Below are positions 26,504 through 38,492 of a stretch of 58,954 nucleotides of DNA, in pieces. Under the pieces are notes generated by a model, which was not told the DNA's origin, searched no databases, and saw only the letters and a program-made list of their open reading frames with translations. Source of the DNA: Dehalococcoidia bacterium (GTDB taxonomy: Bacteria; Chloroflexota; Dehalococcoidia; SZUA-161). Each line of letters opens with the position of its first letter. Position 1 is the stretch's first letter. The DNA lies in contig DAOUMT010000079.1 in assembly GCA_034409195.1 (NCBI GenBank), forward strand, positions 1 to 58,954, written 5' to 3'. Position numbers and translations under genes: made by a program.

Positions 26504-26941
26504 TTATTCTTTGATAACTATAAGCCCGGCCGCAGCCAGAGTCAGAATTACTGCTATTATAAGGGCAAATACAATATATATGCCCCCTTTGCTTCGAATC
26601 ATTCCGATGAACCCGCCCCACATTCCAAGCACTGCGGCAGAGCAAGAAACAGCTATACCCAGCATGGCTATTCCATCGCCATAGGACAGCTTACTCAGGT
26701 ACCAATGCCCTTCAGGAGTTTTGAGGACGCCGGCACACCCACTCCAGATGGCGTCCACACTGGTGCCCCTCCAGAGTTCGTTGAGAGAGCATGTCAGGTT
26801 TACGTAGCCATTGGATACCATGTAGATTATTATGCCGACTATTGAAATTAATATACCAAGAAGGGCAACCCAGTAGGCAATTTCTCCGTAAATGACTCCT
26901 GTGACCGGTACTTCCGAAGCCTTTTCCTTTTCCTTGTCCAT
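26504..26941 (-). CDS. Small integral membrane protein (3-4 TM), family uncertain
   Basis: 145-aa hydrophobic ORF, 15 nt downstream of the TauE gene. It may be the kind of small membrane partner often found beside TauE permeases. I cannot confirm DUF1634. Confidence 0.45.
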   Translation of the reverse strand: MDKEKEKASEVPVTGVIYGEIAYWVALLGILISIVGIIIYMVSNGYVNLTCSLNELWRGTSVDAIWSGCAGVLKTPEGHWYLSKLSYGDGIAMLGIAVSCSAAVLGMWGGFIGMIRSKGGIYIVFALIIAVILTLAAAGLIVIKE

Positions 26942-26956
26942 AGCCCATCACCTGAG

Positions 26957-27934
26957 TTACAACTTATTAAACCCATCAATAACCAGTTTGACCCCTGCAC
27001 CGATCATTACCAGTATAATCATCCATCGGATAAATTGCGCCTTCACTGTGAACATTAACCTGGCCCCTATGCTCGTTCCAATCACTACTCCAATTATGCA
27101 CGCTACAGCGAATAGTGGAAAGATACCTCCACGCATGATGTAGGGCCAGACAGCAGCAGTGTCACCCATGCCTATCAAGACCTTACTGGAAGCAGCCGCA
27201 ACCTTAAGCGGAGCAAGCATGACCAGATTGAATACTGGAACCATAGCCCAGCCGGCCCCCACGCCAAACATACCCGAGACTATTCCGCATCCGCAAAACA
27301 GAATGATCCCGATGGGTGCCTTGGTAACCTTATAGTGTACAACCTTATCCATCGATTGTTCCCAGTAAGACATGGCTAGCCCCAGCCTTTTTGTAAAGCC
27401 GTCCTCTTTCTTTACTTCGGGATACTCGACTTTCTTCCCACCAAAAAGTATCAGAAATGCAATGAATATTACCAGGAAACCCAAAATAAGCCTTATCAAA
27501 GCCTCGCCGAAATCACCCGCTGAAGCTTCAACATAGCCAGCTAGTAGAGCACCCACTACAGCAAAGATAGTGTAAGGGAGGGCTGCAAAGAAGAGCATCT
27601 TTACGTTCGCCAGCCCCCTGCGCAGGAACGGACGAGCGGCAATTAGTGACCCGGCCATAGCTACGACCAATCCAGTTGCCCGGATAATGAACGAATTTAT
27701 GGGTGTAAAACCCATCATCAGAGGTGTGAACACAACCCCACCGCCCACACCACCCAGCACAGCAATAATACCTATTACTGTGCATATAGCTACAAACACG
27801 AAGAAGAACGCCACTGGACTTAAACCCATACCGCTTGGGTCTGCTGTTTCTGCAGCATAGCCTATGCCACTGCTGAACAGAAATATCATTACAGCAAGGA
27901 GGACGACGACGGAAAGCTTTGATAGCCTCATCAT
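26957..27934 (-). CDS. TauE/SafE (DUF81) family anion permease, last large gene of the qmo operon
   Basis: ORF 26957-28039. The probable start MMRLSKLSVVVLL at 27934 avoids overlap with qmoC. Contains the duplicated Gly-rich motifs GGVGGGVVFTPLMM and FGVGAGWAMVPVF. Confidence 0.75.
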   Translation of the reverse strand: MMRLSKLSVVVLLAVMIFLFSSGIGYAAETADPSGMGLSPVAFFFVFVAICTVIGIIAVLGGVGGGVVFTPLMMGFTPINSFIIRATGLVVAMAGSLIAARPFLRRGLANVKMLFFAALPYTIFAVVGALLAGYVEASAGDFGEALIRLILGFLVIFIAFLILFGGKKVEYPEVKKEDGFTKRLGLAMSYWEQSMDKVVHYKVTKAPIGIILFCGCGIVSGMFGVGAGWAMVPVFNLVMLAPLKVAAASSKVLIGMGDTAAVWPYIMRGGIFPLFAVACIIGVVIGTSIGARLMFTVKAQFIRWMIILVMIGAGVKLVIDGFNKL

Positions 27935-27953: not shown

Positions 27954-29084
27954 TTACCTAACTGCTCTCCCGACTTGCCTGGCATAGGCCATAGCCAGCG
28001 TCCTGTAAATGATGTGAGCTCCTTTGGAGAATGGAGCATATATAAGCAGACTGAACAAAAGCCAGAGGTGAACCAGATATACCGAGTAGGTCGCTGTGGA
28101 CAGCTTAGCCAGTCTAACCACTTCGGTAGCTATCCCGCTGATAGTAACTAAGGAAAGCAGCAGGATGAGAAACCAGTCGAAATAGGTCGTATTGCTTCTG
28201 TTACTACCTGTGGTGGAAAACCTCCTGTAGACTGCCAACACACAGCCAGCAAGAAGCAGAAGAGAGCCCAGATTCCCTGCTATCTTGATAGGACTGGTCA
28301 ATGGATATGGTGAATCGATCCCCGATAAATGATAGACCGCGCCTAGAAAGGCAGCGAGCAGGAGAAGGATAAATCCGTAGAAGATCGCTAAATGCGTATA
28401 ACGGTTGATTTTATTCGCCTGACATTTGCCGAAATCGCCATGTTTAAATATATCTACTGCGGCAAAGGCAAAGCTCTTGAGCCAGCCACTCCGGGCGCCG
28501 GATGTCGGCGGTGGGTCTGCTTCAAACTCGTTGATACCTTTCCAGAATCTGACGCCCCCGACAGCAGCCACGACTGCGACGAAGGCAACTATTATAGCCA
28601 TACCGATGTAGGCGTCGGGGTTTGGAATCATATGATTTTCGACAATCGCACCTTTGGGAAGCGTAAGGTCACCCGCGATACCGAGAAAGGCAAATAGAAG
28701 CGCCGCAGGAAGGGCAAGCATAGGCAGCAGATACATAGGTGATGAAAATGCTTTTCTCAAAAAGCCCGGGAGAGCATAACTCATAATTGCATAGCTTCTG
28801 ACGGCAGCCAGGACATCTCCCGGTTTGGCGTCCCGGGGACAGTATGCTGTGCAGTCATTACATCGATGGCATAGCCACACATCGGGGTCCTTCAGCAATC
28901 TATCCTTCAACCCCCGCTGAGCCCACATCATCTCTTTCCTTGGGAAAGGTTTACCGTCAGGAGACAGAGAACAGACCACCGAGCAGGTGCCGCACTGAAA
29001 GCATTTTTTCAGTGACTCGCCACCAAGGCCAATTACATCTCTGACGAATTCACTGTCAGGTTTAATAACGTTTCGTTTCTCCAT
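27954..29084 (-). CDS. qmoC: QmoC, HdrC-like FeS domain fused to an HdrE/NarI-like membrane cytochrome b
   Basis: 376 aa. CFQCGTCSVVCS and CHRCNDCTAYCP at the N-terminus, followed by about 6 TM helices. Confidence 0.85.
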   Translation of the reverse strand: MEKRNVIKPDSEFVRDVIGLGGESLKKCFQCGTCSVVCSLSPDGKPFPRKEMMWAQRGLKDRLLKDPDVWLCHRCNDCTAYCPRDAKPGDVLAAVRSYAIMSYALPGFLRKAFSSPMYLLPMLALPAALLFAFLGIAGDLTLPKGAIVENHMIPNPDAYIGMAIIVAFVAVVAAVGGVRFWKGINEFEADPPPTSGARSGWLKSFAFAAVDIFKHGDFGKCQANKINRYTHLAIFYGFILLLLAAFLGAVYHLSGIDSPYPLTSPIKIAGNLGSLLLLAGCVLAVYRRFSTTGSNRSNTTYFDWFLILLLSLVTISGIATEVVRLAKLSTATYSVYLVHLWLLFSLLIYAPFSKGAHIIYRTLAMAYARQVGRAVR

Positions 29085-29094
29085 ATGACCTGTT

Positions 29095-30297
29095 CTACAA
29101 TGCTTCCAGGACCAGTTCCGAGATATCCTTTATCTCGATTGTGCTTTCTTTCCCTATACTAAGAAGACTATCATCAAACATCAACATGCAATAAGGGCAG
29201 GCCACCGCAAGCACATCCGCTCCGGCATCGATGGCCTCCTTCAGCCTCAAATCGCAGAACCTTTCCTCCTTGGGCGTCTCCATCCAGACCCTTCCGCCGC
29301 CGCCACCGCAGCAAACTGAGGACTTCCTCGAACTCTGAAACTCCATCAATTGCACGCCTGGAATCGCCTGAAGCACCCGGCGTGGCTCATCGTATATCTC
29401 ATTGTGCCGTCCCAGATATCAGGGGTCATGATAGATGACCTTCTTCTTGATCTCCTTCGAGGGCTTCAGTTTACCTTCACGAATAAGCTGGTCTAGCAAC
29501 TGGGAAAGGTGAATAACTTCGAACTGGGCTCCTAGCTCCGGATATTCCTTCTTGAAAGTATGATAGCAGTGCGGAGAATTGACCACCACCCTTTTCACGC
29601 CGCTCTCGGCGAATGCCTGAATATTGCTCTTAGCCAACTCCTGGAATATTGTCTCGTTGCCAGATTTGCGAACGCTCTCACCGCAGCAGCGCTCTTTTGC
29701 GCCCAATACACCATAGTTTATTCCAGCCTTGTTGAGAATCCCCACGGTAGCCCGGGCAATCCTTCTTACCTTGGCGTCAAACGCCGGGACGCAGCAGGTA
29801 TAATAAAGCAGCTCAGTGCCCGGTGTAAAAGGTTTCACGCCCAAATCCTGAGCCCAGCTACCCCGCTCCTTCTCCGGCTCGCCCTGCGGATTGCCGACAT
29901 AAGAGATGTTCTTCACACTCACGCGGAGGGAGTCAGGCACCTTGGCCACGCCCATCTCAGCAATTACCTTTCGCATCGCCCTGATGACATCGATCATCTC
30001 CACGCCTCGCGGGCAGCGAACGGCGCAGGCGCCGCAAGTGGCGCAGGTCCAGATATCTTTGTCTCCGAAATCTATCAAACCGAGCTGAGCCCGATGCATC
30101 ATCCTGCGAGGGAGAAAAGTGCGCACCAGGTTCCACGGGCAAGTCCCGGTGCAAGTACCGCACTGATAGCATATCTTGAGCGTGTCGCCGCCCATCTCCC
30201 GAATAATATCGACCGTCTCTTTATCAGGAACCGCTGGACTCATCTCCGCCTTCTTTCGTGCATTGTTTGGTTCATGGCCCGGCCCAAACTCAACCAA
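29095..30297 (-). CDS. HdrD-like (HdrC+HdrB fusion) CCG-domain FeS oxidoreductase interrupted by one in-frame TGA (candidate selenocysteine; alternatively a pseudogene or sequencing error)
   Basis: ORFs 29419-30297 and 29095-29376 are in the same frame, separated only by a TGA at 29419-29421. The read-through sequence is [32 protein letters not shown]. The TGA falls where the CCG-domain Cys sits (compare HDSCNPAR in dsrK). Two ferredoxin motifs (CYQCGTCTGTCP, CATCGACAVRCP) and two CCG motifs (ERCCGES, VCCGGGGG) are present. An alternative start lies at 30243. Confidence 0.6.
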
Positions 30298-30333
30298 ATC
30301 GTTATCTTCAGGTCAGCAACTCTGCCAAGCCAA

Positions 30334-32553
30334 CTACATCTCCTTGTAGGGGTTGGGGCCAACTCTCTTTATTGTCTCCATGAACTCGTCAAAAATCTGC
30401 GGTATCTTTTTAAATTCTGATATTGAAAGCTCTTCCACCCTGATCCTCTCAGATTCAAGCACAAGTCTCTGCAATGTCTCCTGGACCTTCCCCATCCTCG
30501 TACTTGCCAGCTCGCTGCCTTTTACATAGTGACACTGGTAATCATCGCCGTGCTTGCATCCAATCATAAGTATGCCGTCGATGCCTTTGGAAAGCGAGTC
30601 AGCGATCCAAACGATGTTCACCGAACCAAGACATCTCACCGGGATCACCCTTATAAACGGGTTGTAAGTGATGCGGTTGATGCCGGCCATGTCGAGAGCC
30701 GGATAGGCATCGTTCTCGCAGAGAAAGGCCACCACCCTCGGCTTCTCTTCATCCGGCTCGGGCACCTCTATAGCCTTGAGCATGGAGCTAATTATGTCAA
30801 CTGAATAATCCTTAAACGAGATAATTCTCTCAGGACATGAACCCATGCAGATGCCACACCTTCGGCATCGGGTCGGATTGGGTACGGGATTGAATTTATC
30901 ATCTTCGTTGTACATGCCAAAGGGGCATTCCTCAGTGCATCTCTTGCATTGAGTACACCTTTGCATGAACAGGCTCGGATAGCTCATGTCCCACGTTCTG
31001 GGATGTACCGCCTGCCCTCTTGCAGTCTGCTCTACGCATTGGATAGCCTTAAGCGCCGCTCCGGCTGCATCATCCATGGATGCGGCAATGTCCTCGGGCT
31101 GCCGCACGCAGCCGGCAGCATATATGCCTGTTCGCCGCGTTTCGTACGGGAAGCAGATGAAGTGGGAATCGGGGAATCCGTATTTCAGAGTAGGGATTTC
31201 AGGCCCCTGCCTGTATTGGAGATGCAGCGCAGGAGTCGCGTAGCGCCCCGAATCCGGAGCAACCTCAGTGACCTTCTTTTCGCCTTCCGCAGTCACTGTC
31301 TCTACCTGAGGCATGACCTCTGGCATAGAGTTGGATACTATCCCGGCCGCAAGCACTACCAGGTCCACGTTGACTGCTATGTCCTCTCCCAGCAACACAT
31401 CGTAGACCTCAACAGTGACCTTTCCGCCTTCTTCGGAAATGCCTTTAACATCGCCCTTGGCAAGAAAGACCCCTGGCTCCTCCTGTACTCTCTTGTAAAA
31501 GTCTTCGTACTGTCCAGGGGTCCGCATATCCTTGTAGAATATATAGACCTGAGCTTCGGGATTCTGCCCTGTTACGTAGAGCGCCTGTTTCAGCGAAGTC
31601 ATACAGCAAAAAGCCGAGCAGTAAGCCAGATGGGCCTGGTCCCGCTGACCGGCGCACTGAATGAATGCCACGCTTGAGACTTCCTGCCCGTCGGAGGGAC
31701 GCGTTATTTTGCCTTTCCGCGCCATCTCCTCCATCTGGACATTGGTGATAACATCCTTATACTTGCCGTACCCCAGGTATTCCAGTTTGCCGGGGTCGTA
31801 GGGCTTGAACCCAGTCGCCTGAACGATAGAGCCGATTTTGAGAGAGGTCGAAGTGCCCTTTTGTTTCAGAGAAACGTTGTACATCCCCGGAGCGCCTTCT
31901 ATCTTCTCGATCTCGGCCCCGGTGAAGACCTTGATTTTAGAGTTACCTTCCACCTCTTTGACCTTGGCAGCGACGCCTGTGTCCTCCAACTCGCGATAGG
32001 GAGGATGCTTGGGATATTGCTTTCGCAGTTTGGCTATCCAGCCGCCTAGAGCGGGCTCCTTCTCTACAAGGCAGACATTATATCCTGCCCCAGCCGCTTC
32101 GAGGGCCGAGGTCATTCCGGCTATCCCGCCGCCGACCACCAGAATGGTCTTATCCATGGCTTCAGAGAAAGGCTCCGGTGCCTCAGCCTTCTGTGCCCTG
32201 GCCAGGCCCATCCTGAGATAGTCCTCCGCCAGCATCTGAGTGTCTTCATCTTTGGGCGGGTGAACCCAAGCAACCTGCTCTCTAAGATTGACCCTCTCGA
32301 CGTATACGGATGGCCCATAGCTGAACACGTCCATTTTCGCCCTGGGAGAACAGGCAGCTATAACCGCAGTGTTGGTGCCCTCCTGAATATCCTGCGCTAT
32401 AAGCTTCGCTCCCTCTGCTCCACACAAGAAGGGATGGTTCTTGCAGTTCTCAACCTTAAACTCTTTGGTGGCTACCCCGCAGAGTTTGTCTACATCCAGG
32501 GCATCACCGATTCCGCAGCCACCGCAGATATAAACTCCGAGCTTTTTAGCCAT
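30334..32553 (-). CDS. qmoB: QmoB, HdrA-like flavoprotein with C-terminal MvhD-like domain
   Basis: 739 aa. MAKKLGVYICGGCGIGDALD, FAD motif VVGGGIAGMTSALEAA, ferredoxin motifs CTQCKRCTEECP / CRRCGICMGSCP, and a C-terminal VVAFLCENDAYP (MvhD-like). Confidence 0.9.
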   Translation of the reverse strand: MAKKLGVYICGGCGIGDALDVDKLCGVATKEFKVENCKNHPFLCGAEGAKLIAQDIQEGTNTAVIAACSPRAKMDVFSYGPSVYVERVNLREQVAWVHPPKDEDTQMLAEDYLRMGLARAQKAEAPEPFSEAMDKTILVVGGGIAGMTSALEAAGAGYNVCLVEKEPALGGWIAKLRKQYPKHPPYRELEDTGVAAKVKEVEGNSKIKVFTGAEIEKIEGAPGMYNVSLKQKGTSTSLKIGSIVQATGFKPYDPGKLEYLGYGKYKDVITNVQMEEMARKGKITRPSDGQEVSSVAFIQCAGQRDQAHLAYCSAFCCMTSLKQALYVTGQNPEAQVYIFYKDMRTPGQYEDFYKRVQEEPGVFLAKGDVKGISEEGGKVTVEVYDVLLGEDIAVNVDLVVLAAGIVSNSMPEVMPQVETVTAEGEKKVTEVAPDSGRYATPALHLQYRQGPEIPTLKYGFPDSHFICFPYETRRTGIYAAGCVRQPEDIAASMDDAAGAALKAIQCVEQTARGQAVHPRTWDMSYPSLFMQRCTQCKRCTEECPFGMYNEDDKFNPVPNPTRCRRCGICMGSCPERIISFKDYSVDIISSMLKAIEVPEPDEEKPRVVAFLCENDAYPALDMAGINRITYNPFIRVIPVRCLGSVNIVWIADSLSKGIDGILMIGCKHGDDYQCHYVKGSELASTRMGKVQETLQRLVLESERIRVEELSISEFKKIPQIFDEFMETIKRVGPNPYKEM

Positions 32554-33826
32554 TTGCCCCCCTTCTTACGATGGACTGAATCGCCTTGAGCGCTGCCCTG
32601 GTCCCGTCCTGTACTGAAGTGGAAACATCGGTTGGCCTCCTGACACAACCGGCTGCATAAACACCGGCAGCCTCGGCGGCAACGAAGCCGTAGTTATCAT
32701 ATACCAGGTTCGCCGGTATCTTCGCCTCCGCAGTATTGGGAACCATGCCTGTTGCCAGCACCACCATGTCGAATGATTCTTTTATCTTTTCGCCTGCTGC
32801 TGTGTCTTCGGCATGTAATATCAGGTTCTTGGTCGCCGGGTCTTCTTCGATCTTGGCGACTTTGCCTCTCACCAGGGTAACCCCCTCGATTCCCTGAACA
32901 CGCTGGAGGAAATCTTCCAGAATACCTAACGCACGTACGTCAATGTAGAAGATGGAGACCTTGGTTTCCGGGCTCTGGTCCTTGACATAGGTGCACTGTT
33001 TCAGGGAACCCATGCAGCACACCCCTGAGCAATAGGGCAGGTGATTCTGGTCCCGTGAGCCAGCGCACTGGACAAAGGCGATACTTTTCACCTCTTTCCC
33101 ATCTGAGGGACGAACAATCTTACCCTGGGTTGGCCCGTCGGCAGCTGCTAATCTTTCCATTATTACATTGGTTATTACGTTCGGATACTTGCCATAGCCC
33201 AGATTATCAAGTTTGGTAGCATCGTATGGTTTCCAGCCGGTAGCCAAAACAATCGACCCGACCTTCATGTGCAGGGTTTCCGCAGACATGCCCAGGTCGA
33301 TGGCCTGATACTGGCAAGCGGAAACACATTTAGCACACTCAGCACCAAGACAGACCTTGGTATCAATCACATACTTCAAGGGAAACGCCATCAGACTGGT
33401 CAGGTAGGCAGCCTTAGTTTTATCCAATCCGAAATTATAATCGTTCGGTCTCTCGACCGGGCAGACCTCGGCACACTTGCCGCATGCAGTGCAATTATCA
33501 TTAACCAGGCGCGGGTTCAGCTTGACAGTAACGTCGTAATCACCCTCTTTGCCTGAAATATTCTCAACTTGCGCCAGAGTAAAAACCTTAATTTTCGGAT
33601 TTGTCTTGATCCTCCTGAAATTTATCTCAAGCCCGCAGTAAGGGGCACAAAGTTTGGGGAAATATTTATTCGCCCTCGCTACTCGCCCGCCCAGATAAGG
33701 GCTCTCCTCTACTAAAAATACTTCGTAGCCTACTTCGGCGGCCTCAATTGCTGCTGTCAGGCCGCTCATCCCTCCTCCGATAACAAGGATGCCGTTGGGA
33801 GAGTTTATACTTTCTATGTTCCCCAT
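32546..33826 (-). CDS. qmoA: QmoA, HdrA-like flavoprotein
   Basis: 426 aa. ILVIGGGMSGLTAAIEAAEVGYEVFLVE FAD fold and CTACGKCAEVCP. Overlaps the qmoB start by 8 nt. Confidence 0.9.
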   Translation of the reverse strand: MGNIESINSPNGILVIGGGMSGLTAAIEAAEVGYEVFLVEESPYLGGRVARANKYFPKLCAPYCGLEINFRRIKTNPKIKVFTLAQVENISGKEGDYDVTVKLNPRLVNDNCTACGKCAEVCPVERPNDYNFGLDKTKAAYLTSLMAFPLKYVIDTKVCLGAECAKCVSACQYQAIDLGMSAETLHMKVGSIVLATGWKPYDATKLDNLGYGKYPNVITNVIMERLAAADGPTQGKIVRPSDGKEVKSIAFVQCAGSRDQNHLPYCSGVCCMGSLKQCTYVKDQSPETKVSIFYIDVRALGILEDFLQRVQGIEGVTLVRGKVAKIEEDPATKNLILHAEDTAAGEKIKESFDMVVLATGMVPNTAEAKIPANLVYDNYGFVAAEAAGVYAAGCVRRPTDVSTSVQDGTRAALKAIQSIVRRGANG

Positions 33827-33836
33827 GTAGTTCTCC

Positions 33837-34658
33837 TCATTGGATAGAATCGAGGCCCAACTCTTTCATCTTTCCCTCCGCCACATCACTTCTTATTTTA
33901 AGGGTTTTTTCTGCAAATAGACTAAACCTCAACCACTTAAACCCAAAATCGAGTAACGCTTCATCGTCTTTCTTAATTTTCTTTAGAACCTCATCCTCAA
34001 TTTCAAAGCGTTTAAGGAAGCTGCTATTAAAAATTAGCTTTCTAAACCTGTCAAGATCATAACAGGTTAAATAAAACATCTGACTCTTTGCCGGCCCCAG
34101 TCCTTTGCCCTCGACGAAAAGCTTATGCAGTGTAATTTCCTTATAGGGCTCATTTTTTTGGTTATATTCGTCTATCCCCTGATCCTTCCACCACTCCTCA
34201 ACCGTCCACTCCTGTCCATCTTTAAAACCCAGACAAGAGGACTCTTCGTCAACGATAAAGCAAAACTCCTCGCCATCTGTCCTCTGAGAGGTTTTGGATG
34301 ATGCCATCCCCAGAGGATACATGCGACAGGCCCACGGCCTGTCCTCATAAATAGAGCACCCTTCCGTAGTTACAAAGGGGCAACTCTTGCGAGCGTCATT
34401 CTTCATTCTCAGTAAAACTATGGGGAGCTTCTGGTCCGCTAAAATTGGCGGAAGAGTATATTTTTGGAGAAATTTTCCCGAAGTAATCTTTAACGCCCTT
34501 TTCATACGTAGGACATCATAGGGCGAAAGAAAGATGTTTACATCACCACAACACTGGGTAAAACATGAAAGCCCTTTGCGACAAGAGAACCTGAACTTGC
34601 TTCCCGGGGAAAGTCTGGGGTATTCCTTCAGTATGATTTCTTTCCAACTTTTAACCAT
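33837..34658 (-). CDS. YkgJ/UPF0153-like CxxCxxCC cysteine-cluster protein
   Basis: 273 aa. FSCRKGLSCFTQCCGD fits the CxxCxxCC-type putative Zn/Fe-chelating domain. More Cys follow (CPFVTTEGCSIY, WACRMYP). Lies between aprA and qmoA. Confidence 0.55.
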   Translation of the reverse strand: MVKSWKEIILKEYPRLSPGSKFRFSCRKGLSCFTQCCGDVNIFLSPYDVLRMKRALKITSGKFLQKYTLPPILADQKLPIVLLRMKNDARKSCPFVTTEGCSIYEDRPWACRMYPLGMASSKTSQRTDGEEFCFIVDEESSCLGFKDGQEWTVEEWWKDQGIDEYNQKNEPYKEITLHKLFVEGKGLGPAKSQMFYLTCYDLDRFRKLIFNSSFLKRFEIEDEVLKKIKKDDEALLDFGFKWLRFSLFAEKTLKIRSDVAEGKMKELGLDSIQ

Positions 34659-34748: not shown

Positions 34749-36656
34749 TTAATCAACTATCTGGATTATGTCCCTCTTGAATACGTCCCAATTATTGGTC
34801 TTGGGGTCCCACTTGCAGTTGACGAATACCTTCCACTTGTCATTATCCATTTTAGGAGTATCCGCCCTGAAGTAGTAACCCGGCCACCTAGTCTCCTCGC
34901 GGAACAGCATGGTTCTCACGTGGGACTCTGCCTGCCACATTCGGTGTATGTTTTCCCAGCATCTCATCAGCTCATGAAGATTCTCAGCGGCCAGCTTCTC
35001 GGAATCTTCTTTCAATAACCTGAGAAGCTCGATAGCTGTTTCCAGGGCGGGCTTGTTGGTGGTAAACATGGTCGAAGCTCCCCCTGCGTACTCATCCATG
35101 AGTTTCTGGAGACGGAACATGAACTGCTTGGGCCGAATGTAGTTTTCGTTGACGTCCGGATTGTCCGTCTGACCCTTGAATTGCGCAAAAATGTCCAGCG
35201 GCTTGAGAATCTGCTTCTTGAGAGCCTCGACCGTCGCCGCCTCCACTTTTGGCTGGGTGGGATTGTCAACGATGTAGGCCAGGGCTGATTTGGCACGGAT
35301 TCGACCCTCTGCGTGAGAACCATCGGAGAACTTGTGGCTGGAAGCCCCTGCGGCATCGCCGGCACAGAAGAGTCCCTTAACAGTGGCCATGCCGTTGTAG
35401 CCCCAGAAGTACTCCTTCTTGGACTTTTCAGTCTGCAGGTCCTCGGGGCCACTTATCCAGGCGCCTGAAGCACCCGAATGTGAACCAATGAAGTAGGGCT
35501 CACAAGCCTGCATTTCTGAGGCTCTCTGCTCGGGGGCAATATCGCTGCCCGCCCACAGCAGTGCCTGCGAAATGGTCATATCCAGGAAGTCCTCCCAGGC
35601 CTCAGACTCTACTTCCTTTAGCCTCTTTTTCCGCTCTTTCTCATCGGGCACAGAGCTTACGATGTTCCCGATAGCCTCTTCTGTTCTCATGTATGTTGGA
35701 CCTTTGCCTTCTTTCTGGTCCAGCATCATCAGGTAGTTTCTCAGATTGGCGGGAACAGGCTTGACCAATCCATAGGGTGCCCAGTTCTGCAATTCCGGCC
35801 TTCGCTCGACCATATAGTCGCCGCCCAATGCAGTAGTCGCCCTAGACTTAAACAGAAGGAACCAGGCTCCTACCGGGCCATACGCATCCTTAAACCGAAC
35901 GGGGATGAAGCGGACTTCCTGGCAGGTCATTTCAGCGCCGGACTTCATAGTGAAGTAAGCGCTCGATCCGGTGTTAAACGGGGGATACCATGACCTTCCC
36001 AGACCCTCACCGACTGAGCGGGGTCTGAATACGTGGACCGCTCCACCCATAGCAACTACTACTGCCTTAGCTTTGAACACATAGAACTTTTCTTCCCTGA
36101 CACTGAATCCAACAGCTCCGGCAATCCGGTCTCCATCCAGCAGGGGTTCTGTAATAAAGACCCTCTCATATATCTTGCCGTTGTCGCCCAGTTGGGCTAT
36201 GGCGTTCTTGGCTGCTTCTGAGATCACGATTTTATAAGACTCGCCGTTGATCATGAGCTGCCAGGGGCCTTCAAATACATAATTGCCTTCTTTATCCTTC
36301 CAGATAGGCAAGCCCCATTTTTCAAACAGGTGGACTGAACCATCTACATGCCGGGCAATGTCAAAGACCAGGTCATCCCTGGTAACACCCATAAGGTCAC
36401 TTCTGACATAGCGAACATAGTCCTCAGGTGTCCTGCCTTTCGCCTTCATACCCACATACTGGTTGAGAGCTGAAAGACCCATGGCAAAAGCGCCACTTCT
36501 ATCCATGGCTGCTTTGTCCACCACAGCCACCTTAAGATTATGTTTCTTCGCCCAGTAAGCTGCTTCAACAGCAGCCCCGCACGCTGCCATACCGCCACCG
36601 ATAATCAATAAATCGGTGGTTACTTCAACAGTTTCAAATGCTGCCATATTCATCAC
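34749..36656 (-). CDS. aprA: Adenylylsulfate (APS) reductase alpha subunit
   Basis: 635 aa. TDLLIIGGGMAACGAAVEAAYW FAD fold, fumarate-reductase-like body, directly downstream of aprB. Confidence 0.92.
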   Translation of the reverse strand: MMNMAAFETVEVTTDLLIIGGGMAACGAAVEAAYWAKKHNLKVAVVDKAAMDRSGAFAMGLSALNQYVGMKAKGRTPEDYVRYVRSDLMGVTRDDLVFDIARHVDGSVHLFEKWGLPIWKDKEGNYVFEGPWQLMINGESYKIVISEAAKNAIAQLGDNGKIYERVFITEPLLDGDRIAGAVGFSVREEKFYVFKAKAVVVAMGGAVHVFRPRSVGEGLGRSWYPPFNTGSSAYFTMKSGAEMTCQEVRFIPVRFKDAYGPVGAWFLLFKSRATTALGGDYMVERRPELQNWAPYGLVKPVPANLRNYLMMLDQKEGKGPTYMRTEEAIGNIVSSVPDEKERKKRLKEVESEAWEDFLDMTISQALLWAGSDIAPEQRASEMQACEPYFIGSHSGASGAWISGPEDLQTEKSKKEYFWGYNGMATVKGLFCAGDAAGASSHKFSDGSHAEGRIRAKSALAYIVDNPTQPKVEAATVEALKKQILKPLDIFAQFKGQTDNPDVNENYIRPKQFMFRLQKLMDEYAGGASTMFTTNKPALETAIELLRLLKEDSEKLAAENLHELMRCWENIHRMWQAESHVRTMLFREETRWPGYYFRADTPKMDNDKWKVFVNCKWDPKTNNWDVFKRDIIQIVD

Positions 36657-36663
36657 CTCAATT

Positions 36664-37113
36664 CTACTTCTTTAATGTCGGTAGCGCTGCGACGCGCAAC
36701 GACTCGGGCTCAGTAAACAACAATGGGCTCTTCAGGTTGTCTGCCTCCGGAGCAGTCTTGAATCCTCCGTCAGGCACAGCAGAGCCCTCAGGAGTGGTTC
36801 TGGTGGGAAACCTGAATCTCTTAAGGCTCTTATTCCGGAATTTGACAGTCCACATGATGTCTTCCGTCCCACGGAGGGGTGTCACACTCGCGCCCATAGG
36901 TATGAAGTCAGCATAACCTCTGATAGCCATAGCCTGCTGGGGGCAAAGCTTGACACAGCACATACATTCCCAGCACATCGCCGGGTCGCGGTTGTAAGCC
37001 TTCATGGTGGCCTTATTCAAAACCATGAGGTCATTGGGACAAATATGCTGGCAAGCAGTCTTATCTTGCCCCTTACAACCGTCACACTTCTCCAAGATTA
37101 CATAACTTGGCAT
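36664..37113 (-). CDS. aprB: Adenylylsulfate (APS) reductase beta subunit
   Basis: 149 aa. MPSYVILEKCDGCKGQDKTACQHICPNDLM and CWECMCCVKLCPQQA, plus the extended C-terminal tail characteristic of AprB. Confidence 0.92.
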   Translation of the reverse strand: MPSYVILEKCDGCKGQDKTACQHICPNDLMVLNKATMKAYNRDPAMCWECMCCVKLCPQQAMAIRGYADFIPMGASVTPLRGTEDIMWTVKFRNKSLKRFRFPTRTTPEGSAVPDGGFKTAPEADNLKSPLLFTEPESLRVAALPTLKK

Positions 37114-37289: not shown

Positions 37290-38492
37290 CTACTCCTTCG
37301 CTCTATCGCTCTGGTAATAATCCATCAGTATCTTGGCCACTTCGGGGCGGCTGAATTCGGGTGGAGGAGCTTCGCCCTTGGAAAGCATTTCACGGACCTT
37401 AGTGCCGGACAGCATCAAGTAGTCCTCCTGAGTATGAGGGCAATTGCGAACCATAACGATACCCTGGCATTTGTTGCACCACACAGTGTTGTCGCCTCGG
37501 TAGATGCCAATCTTGAGGGCATTCTTGGGAATCTTATCGAATATGGTCTGGGCATCGAAAGGTCCGTAATAACTGCCAACTCCAGCGTGGTCACGGCCGG
37601 TAATCAGAGTTGTTGCTCCCATATTCTGACGGAAGACGGCATGCAGCAAAGCCTCACGCGGGCCGGCATACAGCATGTCATATCCATAGCCAGTGACCTC
37701 AACTGAGTTAGGTGGGAAATAACGTTCCACCATCTTTCTAATTGCCATATCGCGCACATCGGCAGGAATGTCGCCCTTCTTCAATTTGCCCAGCAGCATA
37801 TGAATCACCGCGCCGTCAGCGCCTTCTTCTTTCATCGCCATTTTGACAAGCTCTTCGTGCGCCCGGTGCATGGGGTTACGGGTCTGGAACGCCACCACCT
37901 TCTTCCAGCCATGTTTCCCGATCATTTCTCGTATTTGTGCCGCTGTTCGGAAGGTCTCAGGAAATTCGGCGGCAAAATAGGAGTAGTTCAATACCCGAAT
38001 GGGACCGGAGATGAAGGTTCTTCCTGCGTTCATCCAGTTGGCGACACCGGGGTGTTTCTCATCGAGAGTACCGAATATCTTCTCTGCCATAAATTTCATC
38101 TGGTCTTCGGTTGCTTCCTCGATAGCCTGCACATCCTGGATAGCGATAACCGGGTTACCGGCAACGTTGCAGTCTTTGAGCGCAATGCGCTTAGCGCCCT
38201 TGATTGAACTGGCATCTTTGACCACGTTCACAATGGGAACAGGCCAGAAGAGGCCATCCTTGGCCTCCATTTTCTCAGCTACCTTCAGAGCCTCCTGGAG
38301 CCCCATGTATCCCTTCAATGGATTGAAATATCCGGCTCCCAGCATCACGGCGTTTGCCGCCGCCTGCGAACATATAACTATAGATGGTAGAGTTTGTGCT
38401 TCTTTCAAAAGTTTTGCTCTCTCTGCATCATCCGCCACGTAGAGTGGATTTAGAGTGTCTGAGCCATGGGGTTTTATAAGTTTATCTGCCAT
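37290..38492 (-). CDS. sat: Sulfate adenylyltransferase (ATP sulfurylase)
   Basis: 400 aa. LIKPHGSDTLNPLYV, VAFQTRNPMHRAHEEL and GRDHAGVG are ATP-sulfurylase signatures. Confidence 0.9.
   Translation of the reverse strand: MADKLIKPHGSDTLNPLYVADDAERAKLLKEAQTLPSIVICSQAAANAVMLGAGYFNPLKGYMGLQEALKVAEKMEAKDGLFWPVPIVNVVKDASSIKGAKRIALKDCNVAGNPVIAIQDVQAIEEATEDQMKFMAEKIFGTLDEKHPGVANWMNAGRTFISGPIRVLNYSYFAAEFPETFRTAAQIREMIGKHGWKKVVAFQTRNPMHRAHEELVKMAMKEEGADGAVIHMLLGKLKKGDIPADVRDMAIRKMVERYFPPNSVEVTGYGYDMLYAGPREALLHAVFRQNMGATTLITGRDHAGVGSYYGPFDAQTIFDKIPKNALKIGIYRGDNTVWCNKCQGIVMVRNCPHTQEDYLMLSGTKVREMLSKGEAPPPEFSRPEVAKILMDYYQSDRAKE

Follow-up and report, generated by a model that had tools for sequence, protein, structure and literature searches.

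The window analysed here, a contig of 58,954 nucleotides from a Dehalococcoidia bacterium (DAOUMT010000079.1, assembly GCA_034409195.1), carries on its minus strand a string of genes that begins with sat (ATP sulfurylase; 37290..38492), a 400-aa ORF whose syntenic gene in two other loci (L108 and L138) carries the ATP-sulfurylase domain PF01747. It is followed by aprB (36664..37113) and aprA (34749..36656), which score 191.5 bits against TIGR02060 (cut-off 135.65) and 881 bits against TIGR02061 (cut-off 641.75), respectively. Between aprA and qmoA lies a gene for a CxxCxxCC protein (33837..34658; PF03692, Pfam E 2.4e-10), which is found at the same site in a Syntrophales locus (L107) and in three Chloroflexota loci without hdrD (L136-L138). 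Pfam and NCBIfam matches, together with synteny, identify the next two genes, which adjoin aprBA, as encoding two HdrA-like flavoproteins: qmoA (32546..33826) codes for an FAD/FeS protein of 426 aa and is 59-97% identical to the relatives' gene placed after aprBA and before qmoB-qmoC, and qmoB (30334..32553) codes for a protein of 739 aa with a C-terminal FlpD/MvhD domain (PF02662, E 6.5e-44).

The three-gene unit with qmoC straight after qmoB is not found here; a gene of 1149 nt and 382 codons (29095..30243) intervenes, encoding an HdrD-like protein, hereafter HdrD, with a Fer4 dicluster and two CCG domains (PF02754), and containing one in-frame TGA (29419..29421). Its start was set by homologues, as the ATG yielding 382 aa. 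The spacer between qmoB and hdrD (30244..30333) measures 90 nt, longer than the other junctions, and when read directly it shows a Shine-Dalgarno-like GAAGGCGGAG immediately upstream of the ATG; the gap between hdrD and qmoC is 10 nt, and a minus-strand scan of both spacers gave no terminator-like or promoter-like site. qmoC itself (27954..29084) is full length, its 376-aa product combining an HdrC-like domain for two [4Fe-4S] clusters with a membrane di-haem cytochrome-b domain. The string continues with a TauE/SafE-type permease gene (26957..27934; PF01925, E 2.1e-35), whose true start probably lies near 27934, as the long ORF from 28039 overlaps qmoC and homologue alignments begin at query residue 35, and it ends with a 145-aa membrane protein (26504..26941), the syntenic gene of which is marked PF27327 AF_1016 in L100, L101, L136 and L137. 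The preliminary description of this stretch had placed qmoA, qmoB, an HdrD-like gene with two ferredoxin motifs and two CCG domains, and qmoC between 27954 and 33826; the ORFs, Pfam and NCBIfam matches bear this out, the outer coordinates are exact for qmoA to qmoC, and the operon does encode, as had been claimed, a soluble protein of the HdrC+HdrB type alongside a complete membrane QmoC.

QmoC matches the NCBIfam qmoC model (NF038018) over model positions 1-360 of 360 with 381 bits (cut-off 300), and its 8 FeS cysteines and 4 histidines are all present and vary neither between phyla nor among the HdrD-bearing loci. Where relatives lack HdrD, qmoB and qmoC are separated by 4-64 nt (4-19 nt in L136-L138). 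Within the HdrD-bearing clade QmoC has evolved unusually fast, with identities of 45-48% while QmoB keeps 68-76%.

For HdrD, Pfam finds Fer4 and CCG domains on both pieces of the interrupted gene, the alignment to 382-aa homologues extends over the full length, and the protein has no Pfam match to a membrane or cytochrome-b domain. Its N-terminal domain scores 82 bits against the HdrC model TIGR03290 and 79 bits against NF038018, where it matches the N-terminal part of QmoC; the protein falls below the cut-off of every NCBIfam model for Hdr, DsrK, TmcB and TfrB, the best being TfrB with 152 bits vs 385. All its cysteines and His243 are invariant in an alignment with 15 homologues. Compared with the two CX(31-39)CCGX(35-36)CXXC motifs that bind noncubane [4Fe-4S] clusters in HdrD/HdrBC-type subunits, the first CCG motif consists of C168-C169, C204-C205-G and S241-P-H-C244, with Ser replacing the first Cys of CXXC; the second is complete except for the TGA, which takes the place of its first Cys (HDP-C-YLGR). 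By closeness, the solved relatives are the soluble part of mycobacterial EtfD, then LutA and HdrB. The best match among them is M. smegmatis EtfD (PDB 9OJN; phmmer E 7.6e-71, residues 73-399), with His243 aligning to EtfD His583, and Foldseek also ranks EtfD first (E 4.2e-22, vs 1e-8 or weaker for HdrB) with an AlphaFold model that served solely for this ranking (mean pLDDT 67, the CCG half alone being confident and residues 1-139 poor). The 120 best database matches of HdrD, where they carry a taxon name, are all from Chloroflexota.

The TGA stands in a column that is an invariant Cys in the 15 homologues and corresponds in the alignment to EtfD Cys637, which ligates the noncubane [4Fe-4S] cluster D2; as assembled, the product would miss the whole second CCG domain. 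At this site TGC or TGT is found in 61 of 61 motif-carrying loci and in 9 of 9 further loci, and TGA in none of these 70. An exact-sequence look-up of truncated products returned the window's own 274-aa product only, the 11 other members of the 90% cluster all being full length. The possibility of a decayed pseudogene, raised in the preliminary description, does not fit these data: there is one stop only, and the remaining gene is under purifying selection, with 56 synonymous and 11 non-synonymous differences from its closest relative.

The codon might instead be read as selenocysteine (Sec), which in this population would take the place of the Cys that ligates the cluster in the second CCG domain and yield a seleno-HdrD. 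It falls exactly on the codon of an invariant ligand Cys; only 19 of the 143 single-base nonsense changes possible in the gene hit Cys codons; all 8 window-specific changes downstream of it are synonymous; and the genome encodes tRNA-Sec, selA, selB and a Sec-containing selD and reads in-frame TGA as Sec in HdrA, MvhD and the large subunit of a [NiFe] hydrogenase. Seleno-HdrD is also known from Desulfobacterium autotrophicum (hdrD4, hdrF2; PMC2702500). There is thus an in-frame UGA where homologues have Cys, in a genome with selABCD, but neither a SECIS hairpin near the UGA nor a UGA common to orthologues or independent assemblies was found. The 41 nt from the UGA form no SECIS-like hairpin (MFE -4.0 kcal/mol, z = +0.22; a 76-nt fold was also tried), and the sole GC-rich stem begins ~39 nt past the U of UGA, whereas the genome's three real Sec sites (HdrA, MvhD, SelD) have clear hairpins of -8.6 to -17.5 kcal/mol that start 7-19 nt past that U. 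An Rfam search at a permissive threshold gave no SECIS, with a chance lncRNA match alone (E 5.9). The RNA downstream is essentially as in Cys-encoding relatives (94% nt identity), and the TGA recurs in no other assembly, neither at the 70 loci nor in the 11 cluster members. We consider selenocysteine unlikely; judging from these sequence comparisons, the TGA is probably a nonsense mutation of very recent date or an error in the assembly consensus, rather than decoded Sec or an old pseudogene. The hdrD copy of the source MAG differs by one C-to-A substitution, which turns TGC into TGA at the cluster-ligand cysteine; for this MAG, annotating the stop as selenocysteine would call for support from reads.

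A comparison of gene neighborhoods, as proposed in the preliminary description, reveals that this is no isolated arrangement. The order qmoB-hdrD-qmoC is also present in no fewer than 11 further genomes of Dehalococcoidia/Chloroflexota at species level (GTDB species representatives), in 6 of 6 QmoC-bearing genomes among 50 from the order to which the window belongs, and in two closely related metagenome contigs (L100 and L101). In 13 of 13 loci spanning the clade, hdrD lies strictly between qmoB and qmoC, at HdrD protein identities down to 66%, and the cofactor ligands of both HdrD and QmoC are all retained across the HdrD-bearing genomes. The arrangement is far beyond chance. Other Chloroflexota (L136-L138) have operons of the same frame, with the CxxCxxCC gene and without hdrD, and in two of the three TauE and AF_1016 are present too; hdrD is likewise absent from Syntrophales, delta-proteobacterial and L109 operons; its absence outside the clade is based on 9 HdrD-less loci, which include the nearest non-Chloroflexota QmoC contigs. 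Three MAGs labelled Desulfobacteraceae (L073, L075, L088) contain no true QmoC, and their HdrD proteins fall among the Dehalococcoidia family in the tree. Across the phylum QmoC is rare, 3 of 401 sampled Chloroflexota genomes scoring above the cut-off of the qmoC model. We found no description of qmoAB-hdrD-qmoC in the literature, although the synteny table of Neukirchen et al., the part of which considered here has no Chloroflexi rows, could list one; this conserved four-gene Qmo variant, in one clade of uncultured sulfate-reducing Dehalococcoidia, is thus apparently undescribed.

In a tree of QmoA+QmoB, the HdrD-bearing operons form one clade (SH-aLRT 96) that is sister to the HdrD-less Chloroflexota, and in a quick tree of HdrD with SH-aLRT support (94 rows) the qmo-linked copies likewise fall into one clade (SH-aLRT 95) that branches within a Dehalococcoidia family. 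Of the 94 sampled family members, 54 adjoin HdrA-like genes, as in L039, where the order is [NiFe] hydrogenase ... hdrD-hdrA; two genomes carry both qmo-linked and hdrA-linked copies, and in L075, of the same HdrD clade, hdrD stands behind acd-acd-etfB-etfA. The latter locus implies that the HdrD family is not tied to HdrA-type partners, and the family as sampled shows at least three flavoprotein contexts, namely HdrA, QmoAB and ETF. The two trees indicate a single late gain, in which a resident Dehalococcoidia hdrD was inserted into a canonical type-I qmoABC. The donor gene, which elsewhere lies directly upstream of hdrA, would have entered the short qmoB-qmoC junction of a sat-aprBA-qmoABC cluster once, and HdrD and an intact QmoC would both have been maintained since. 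The preliminary description had offered another view, that of an evolutionary intermediate between QmoABC and QmoAB-HdrBC/HdrD, and the operon does hold parts of both architectures. The trees point the other way: because the sister Chloroflexota and the nearest Desulfobacterota operons are without hdrD, the four-gene operon is a derived state, young and gained once within Chloroflexota, and the inserted gene is nested in a Dehalococcoidia-specific family whose named best database matches are all Chloroflexota. We therefore regard an intermediate as extremely improbable.

On the electron supply of APS reductase, Ramos et al. [quoted passage not shown] We infer that HdrD works either as a third redox port on QmoAB or as an EtfD-like electron wire. 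QmoA and QmoB are both HdrA homologues, but the classical complex has a single HdrC-type partner, QmoC. On the former model HdrD, whose N-terminal domain is a homologue of HdrC and of the corresponding domain of QmoC, would take the second HdrC-type docking site. The clusters of its two CCG domains would then form a third port, next to the route to quinol over the QmoC haems and the outlet to AprBA, and through it a cytoplasmic thiol/disulfide couple or a redox protein might share electrons with menaquinol in the reduction of APS. Such a port would answer to the sort of third partner postulated by Ramos et al. A more specific version is a three-port enzyme in which the CCG site of HdrD oxidizes or reduces a thiol/disulfide carrier (DsrC or a low-molecular-weight thiol), QmoC exchanges with menaquinol, and the QmoAB flavins confurcate onto APS reductase; we hold this version to be rather unlikely, but if true it would be a natural, operon-encoded case of the postulated partner, and the membrane and soluble Qmo variants would be compatible modules rather than alternatives.

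A point against the third port comes from EtfD itself, the nearest solved relative, whose clusters D1 and D2, the counterparts of those in HdrD, are shielded from solvent and have no catalytic role, with His583 closing D2 (PMC13083937); with this His conserved as the invariant His243, an electron wire is favored over thiol chemistry. HdrD would in that case have no substrate of its own and would dock on the cytochrome-b domain of QmoC, much as HdrD does on HdrE, DsrK on DsrM and the soluble portion of EtfD on the membrane portion of the same protein, merely relaying electrons between the QmoAB flavins and the haems or menaquinone and altering either the path of the quinol link or its potential. 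The sequence and structure rankings led by EtfD, the end of hdrD 10 nt upstream of qmoC, the clade member that follows etfBA and the fast evolution of QmoC, which fits a remodeled interface, all speak for such a wire. On the other hand, HdrD still has the Hdr-type Cys-Cys (C204, C205) in its first CCG domain, while EtfD has Cys-Thr, which binds a linear [3Fe-4S] cluster (PMC13083937); the parent family adjoins genes for Mvh hydrogenase and soluble HdrA, and none in the vicinity encodes a cytochrome b, a setting in which a terminal acceptor site is needed; and QmoC already has its own two-cluster domain for such a relay. We think the wire fairly unlikely. That HdrD is not a Qmo subunit at all, being co-located with qmo but working elsewhere with HdrA/Mvh or in DsrC recycling, would be in line with HdrA being the partner of the parent family, with the 90-nt gap upstream of hdrD and with the presence of an hdrCBA-mvhDGA cluster in the source genome. 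That cluster, however, has its own HdrC and HdrB, genomes with an hdrA-linked copy still retain the qmo-linked one, the position between qmoB and qmoC is kept at all 13 loci despite the divergence to 66% identity, and neither spacer shows a terminator or promoter signal; we find this explanation very unlikely. The reading that we favor, a lineage-specific qmoA-qmoB-hdrD-qmoC operon that arose by a single insertion, with HdrD as a third port on QmoAB and the TGA as a recent variant or error, is as a joint claim somewhat probable on balance.

The membrane (QmoABC) and soluble (QmoAB-HdrBC/HdrD) forms have hitherto been treated as alternatives, and a clade that keeps both modules in one operon through long divergence shows that they can coexist. 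The four genes offer a defined co-expression set for locating the docking site of an HdrC/HdrB-type module on QmoAB and for asking if a thiol/disulfide couple participates. They also document the modification of a laterally spread sulfate-reduction island with a gene of the host lineage.

Mycobacterial EtfD (Rv0338c homologue; 9OJN) passes electrons from a flavoprotein to haem b and menaquinone (PMC13083937), and HdrD shares with it two [4Fe-4S] motifs and two CCG domains, the HDPC(Y/F)LGRHN, CCG and CPxC motifs and the cluster-closing His. EtfD has a fused membrane domain, whereas HdrD is a soluble protein of 382 aa with no membrane segment, its alignment starting at EtfD residue 402; it also has CCG rather than CTG, Ser for EtfD Cys581, and the extra Cys168. 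With HdrBC of HdrABC-MvhAGD (5ODC) and HdrD of HdrDE it has in common the HdrC-like and HdrB-like domains and a gene family whose members lie next to hdrA and, in the single locus inspected, also close to a [NiFe] hydrogenase gene; the fold resembles HdrB (TM 0.64-0.66 normalized to HdrB) but the sequence similarity is weak (E 1e-6 to 1e-5). The seleno-HdrD/HdrF proteins of Desulfobacterium autotrophicum HRM2 (PMC2702500) illustrate that HdrD-type proteins can carry Sec in selenoprotein-rich organisms, unlike the present case, in which the TGA is found in no orthologue and lacks a SECIS-like structure behind it.

Among Qmo systems, the QmoAB-HdrBC and QmoAB-HdrD variants of Gram-positive sulfate reducers, some Deltaproteobacteria and sulfur oxidizers are explicitly discussed in PMC10504309 as lacking QmoC. 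The present operon resembles them in placing QmoAB and a soluble HdrC+HdrB-type CCG protein in the apr locus; it differs from them, as they are described there without QmoC and hence without a membrane link, in its intact, conserved qmoC 10 nt after hdrD, and its HdrD stems from the Dehalococcoidia hdrD-hdrA family, the distinction from these variants being drawn from their descriptions. With type-I QmoABC of Desulfovibrio, Archaeoglobus and Chlorobi (Pires 2003, Ramos 2012, Neukirchen 2023) it shares qmoA, qmoB with its MvhD-like tail and a full qmoC behind sat-aprBA, and QmoC passes the NCBI qmoC equivalog model with all FeS and haem ligands present; what sets it apart from type I is the fourth gene, for a soluble HdrD-like protein of 382 aa, that stands between qmoB and qmoC in every member of the clade.

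Our comparison of gene neighbourhoods indicates that qmoA-qmoB-hdrD-qmoC is a real and conserved four-gene Qmo variant shared by a single clade of uncultured Dehalococcoidia. ORFs and domain searches give, on the window's minus strand, an unbroken gene string that runs from sat (37290-38492) through aprB (36664-37113), aprA (34749-36656), a gene for a CxxCxxCC-domain protein (PF03692; 33837-34658), qmoA (32546-33826; 426 aa), qmoB (30334-32553; 739 aa, with an MvhD/FlpD tail), the HdrD-like gene (hdrD; 29095-30243) and qmoC (27954-29084; 376 aa) to a TauE-type permease gene 3' of qmoC and, last, a membrane protein gene (145 aa). ORFs upstream on the opposite strand fit dsrA, dsrB, dsrN and dsrC of two closely related metagenome contigs (L100 and L101) in size and position; a dsrD ORF falls below the size of our ORF listing. 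The window is contig C79 of its MAG, which comprises 2.5 Mb in 326 contigs and is 87% complete with 7% contamination. Window QmoC scores 381 bits over the entire length of the NCBI qmoC equivalog model (cut-off 300) and retains 8 cysteines and 4 histidines, all invariant from Chloroflexota to Archaeoglobales, while the HdrD-like protein combines two ferredoxin-type [4Fe-4S] motifs with two CCG domains (PF02754); the preliminary description was thus correct, coordinates included, in placing an HdrD-like gene between qmoB and a full-length qmoC. A consensus scan of the spacers around hdrD found no terminator-like or promoter-like site on the minus strand, which is weak evidence. The CxxCxxCC gene occupies the same aprA-qmoA slot in a Syntrophales contig (L107:2528-3352) and in HdrD-less Chloroflexota (L136:1067-1897, L137:2664-3527 and L138:2664-3527), and is therefore an older and wider apr-qmo companion, not peculiar to this genome.

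A survey for HdrD-like relatives, with each GTDB species represented by one genome, yielded 425 stretches; among the best 80 of these, which we inspected, hdrD has a true qmoB and/or qmoC as immediate neighbour at 11 loci (L020-25, L027, L029, L031, L033 and L038). Where the contig permits, sat, aprBA, the CxxCxxCC gene and qmoA precede the unit at these loci and TauE follows it; gene order is identical in L100 and L101, whose hdrD has ~94% nucleotide identity to that of the window. Relatives of the HdrD-like protein that carry a taxon name all come from Dehalococcoidia or Chloroflexota. Within the taxonomic order of the window's genome, true QmoC occurs in 6 of 50 genomes, and hdrD lies between qmoB and qmoC in all six. 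Operons lacking hdrD were found in two more Chloroflexota sampled across the phylum (G364 and G220), in four loci reached via the closest QmoC proteins (L109, L136, L137 and L138), and in the nearest non-Chloroflexota operons, from Syntrophales (L107) and a delta-proteobacterium (L108). The CxxCxxCC frame is present in three of those four loci, two of which also have TauE and AF_1016; the qmoB-qmoC gap is 4-19 nt in the hdrD-less Chloroflexota loci with this frame. In L136 (8161-13580), an F-type ATP synthase operon directly follows qmoC-tauE-AF_1016. The distribution of the sulfate-reduction island itself is patchy: of six genomes of the genus, three have QmoC, and a 99%-complete member is without it. 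The island is thus an accessory trait, probably mobile or laterally moving in these Dehalococcoidia. We also noted, in non-sulfate-reducing Dehalococcoidia, a soluble Qmo look-alike without apr genes or QmoC (L028, L037, L059 and L081), where a second hdrD-like gene (~33-35% identity) is followed by qmoA-like and qmoB-like genes.

In a tree of concatenated QmoA and QmoB, every HdrD-bearing operon falls into one clade (SH-aLRT 96), sister to HdrD-less Chloroflexota, with L109 and Desulfobacterota outside. In a quick IQ-TREE run with SH-aLRT support on 94 HdrD-like proteins, the qmo-linked copies likewise form one clade (SH-aLRT 95), nested in a Dehalococcoidia family of which 54 sampled members adjoin HdrA-like genes. 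The parent context is seen in L039, with a [NiFe]-hydrogenase large subunit, small ORFs, hdrD and a 650-aa hdrA; two sulfate-reducing genomes carry both the qmo-linked hdrD and a second copy adjoining HdrA-like genes. The agreement of the two trees points to a single event, in which an hdrD resident in the lineage was inserted between qmoB and qmoC in a canonical type-I qmoABC operon, the classical membrane form. One insertion into qmoABC makes the four-gene operon a derived variant, and not, as had been proposed, an evolutionary intermediate between QmoABC and QmoAB-HdrBC. The comparison of aprBA-qmo neighbourhoods called for in the preliminary description is in line with this: among the loci compared, the insert occurs in one Dehalococcoidia clade, and the sister and outgroup operons sampled are without hdrD. 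The variant is apparently undescribed so far; the searchable papers on sulfate-reducing Chloroflexota or Qmo make no mention of hdrD between qmoB and qmoC, and an instance may be tabulated in Neukirchen et al. (synteny table) or in Pereira et al. 2011.

The window's hdrD, 382 codons long, contains a single in-frame stop, TGA at codon 275 (29419-29421), where homologues encode the first cysteine of the second CCG motif (HDPCYLGR). In a sequence alignment, this codon matches Cys637 of the mycobacterial membrane oxidoreductase EtfD (PDB 9OJN), a ligand of its noncubane [4Fe-4S] cluster D2 (PMC13083937). The eight substitutions downstream of TGA that are specific to the window's lineage are all synonymous, so that the stop must have arisen very recently, be an artefact, or be read through; an old, decayed pseudogene, a possibility raised earlier, is excluded by these changes and by the 56 synonymous vs 11 non-synonymous differences from the closest relative. 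That TGA encodes selenocysteine is suggested by the tRNA-Sec, selA, selB and selD (with its own TGA) of this genome, by in-frame TGA codons, interpreted as Sec, in its HdrA, MvhD and [NiFe] hydrogenase large subunit, by seleno-HdrD proteins known elsewhere (PMC2702500), and by the fact that Cys codons are the target of only 13% of possible nonsense changes in hdrD. However, the 41 nt from UGA form no SECIS-like hairpin (-4.0 kcal/mol, z = +0.2), whereas the genome's own Sec sites used as positive controls (HdrA, MvhD and SelD; n=3) fold at -8.6 to -17.5 kcal/mol, with hairpins that begin 7-19 nt past the U of UGA. The RNA 3' of TGA is moreover nearly identical to that of Cys-encoding relatives, all 70 other loci examined have TGC or TGT at this codon, and all 11 other members of the 90% protein cluster are full length. 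The stop is most likely not selenocysteine, which we regard as an unlikely reading; a recent nonsense variant or a consensus error is highly probable. The same genome has a canonical hdrC-hdrB-hdrA-mvhD-mvhG-mvhA cluster (contig C40:5012-11303) with an in-frame TGA in each of HdrA (CSAU), MvhD (CGUH) and the hydrogenase large subunit.

The cysteines of all four HdrD cluster motifs and His243 are invariant in a 16-sequence alignment, and all QmoC ligands are retained in every HdrD-bearing locus; together with the substitution pattern of hdrD, this argues that both modules are maintained. Within the HdrD-bearing clade, QmoC is only 45-48% identical to that of the window (27954-29084, compared with L023, L027, L029, L031 and L038), against 68-76% for QmoB and 75-86% for AprA, while QmoC of the HdrD-less L136 is 70% identical. 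Insertion of hdrD may have been followed by remodelling of the QmoC surface. The QmoC ORF of L024, L025 and L033 reaches ~450 aa through an insertion that separates the FeS domain from the membrane domain.

HdrABC pairs each HdrA with an HdrC. QmoA and QmoB are both HdrA homologues, and classical Qmo has a single HdrC-type domain, the QmoC N-terminus. Since the HdrD N-domain is homologous to HdrC and to the QmoC N-domain (NCBIfam model scores), we propose that HdrD would occupy a second HdrC-type docking site on QmoAB. The complex would then have three ports: quinol via the QmoC haems, AprBA, and the HdrD CCG clusters, the last serving a cytoplasmic thiol/disulfide or protein partner. Ramos et al. 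argued that Qmo needs an extra partner, menaquinol alone being unable to drive APS reduction (PMC3333476); if our proposal is true, the HdrD port would supply it. The main rival places HdrD on the cytochrome-b domain of QmoC, as an EtfD/HdrDE-like wire with no substrate of its own, and is favoured by the similarity to EtfD, the 10-nt spacing between hdrD and qmoC, and the rapid divergence of QmoC.

The HdrD-like protein stays below the cut-off of every NCBIfam model (TfrB 152 bits, cut-off 385; LdhH 104, GlpC 85, HdrC 82, QmoC N-domain 79, TmcB 67, DsrK 59, HmcF 55, HdrB 38). Among solved relatives, the cytoplasmic part of Mycobacterium smegmatis EtfD (9OJN) is by far the best match (phmmer E 7.6e-71, Foldseek E 4.2e-22), followed by LutA and HdrB (TM 0.64-0.66 normalised to HdrB). 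The clusters of EtfD wire ETF to haem b and menaquinone; they comprise two cubane clusters, a linear [3Fe-4S] and a noncubane [4Fe-4S] that His583 closes, none of them catalytic (PMC13083937). Our protein shares the cluster-closing histidine (His243) and a complete second motif, but its first motif is Hdr-type Cys-Cys instead of Cys-Thr, EtfD Cys581 is replaced by Ser, and Cys168 is extra; from this mixture, sequence alone does not tell whether the site is catalytic, as in Hdr, or a closed relay. An HdrD of the qmo-linked clade also occurs without qmo genes in a MAG labelled Desulfobacteraceae that has no true QmoC (L075:3729-9254); this copy is broken, with TGA at a Pro position and a shortened glycine run after the second CCG motif, and it immediately follows a string of two acyl-CoA dehydrogenase genes and etfB-etfA. 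Such a neighbourhood suggests that the HdrD family may also partner ETF, like EtfD.
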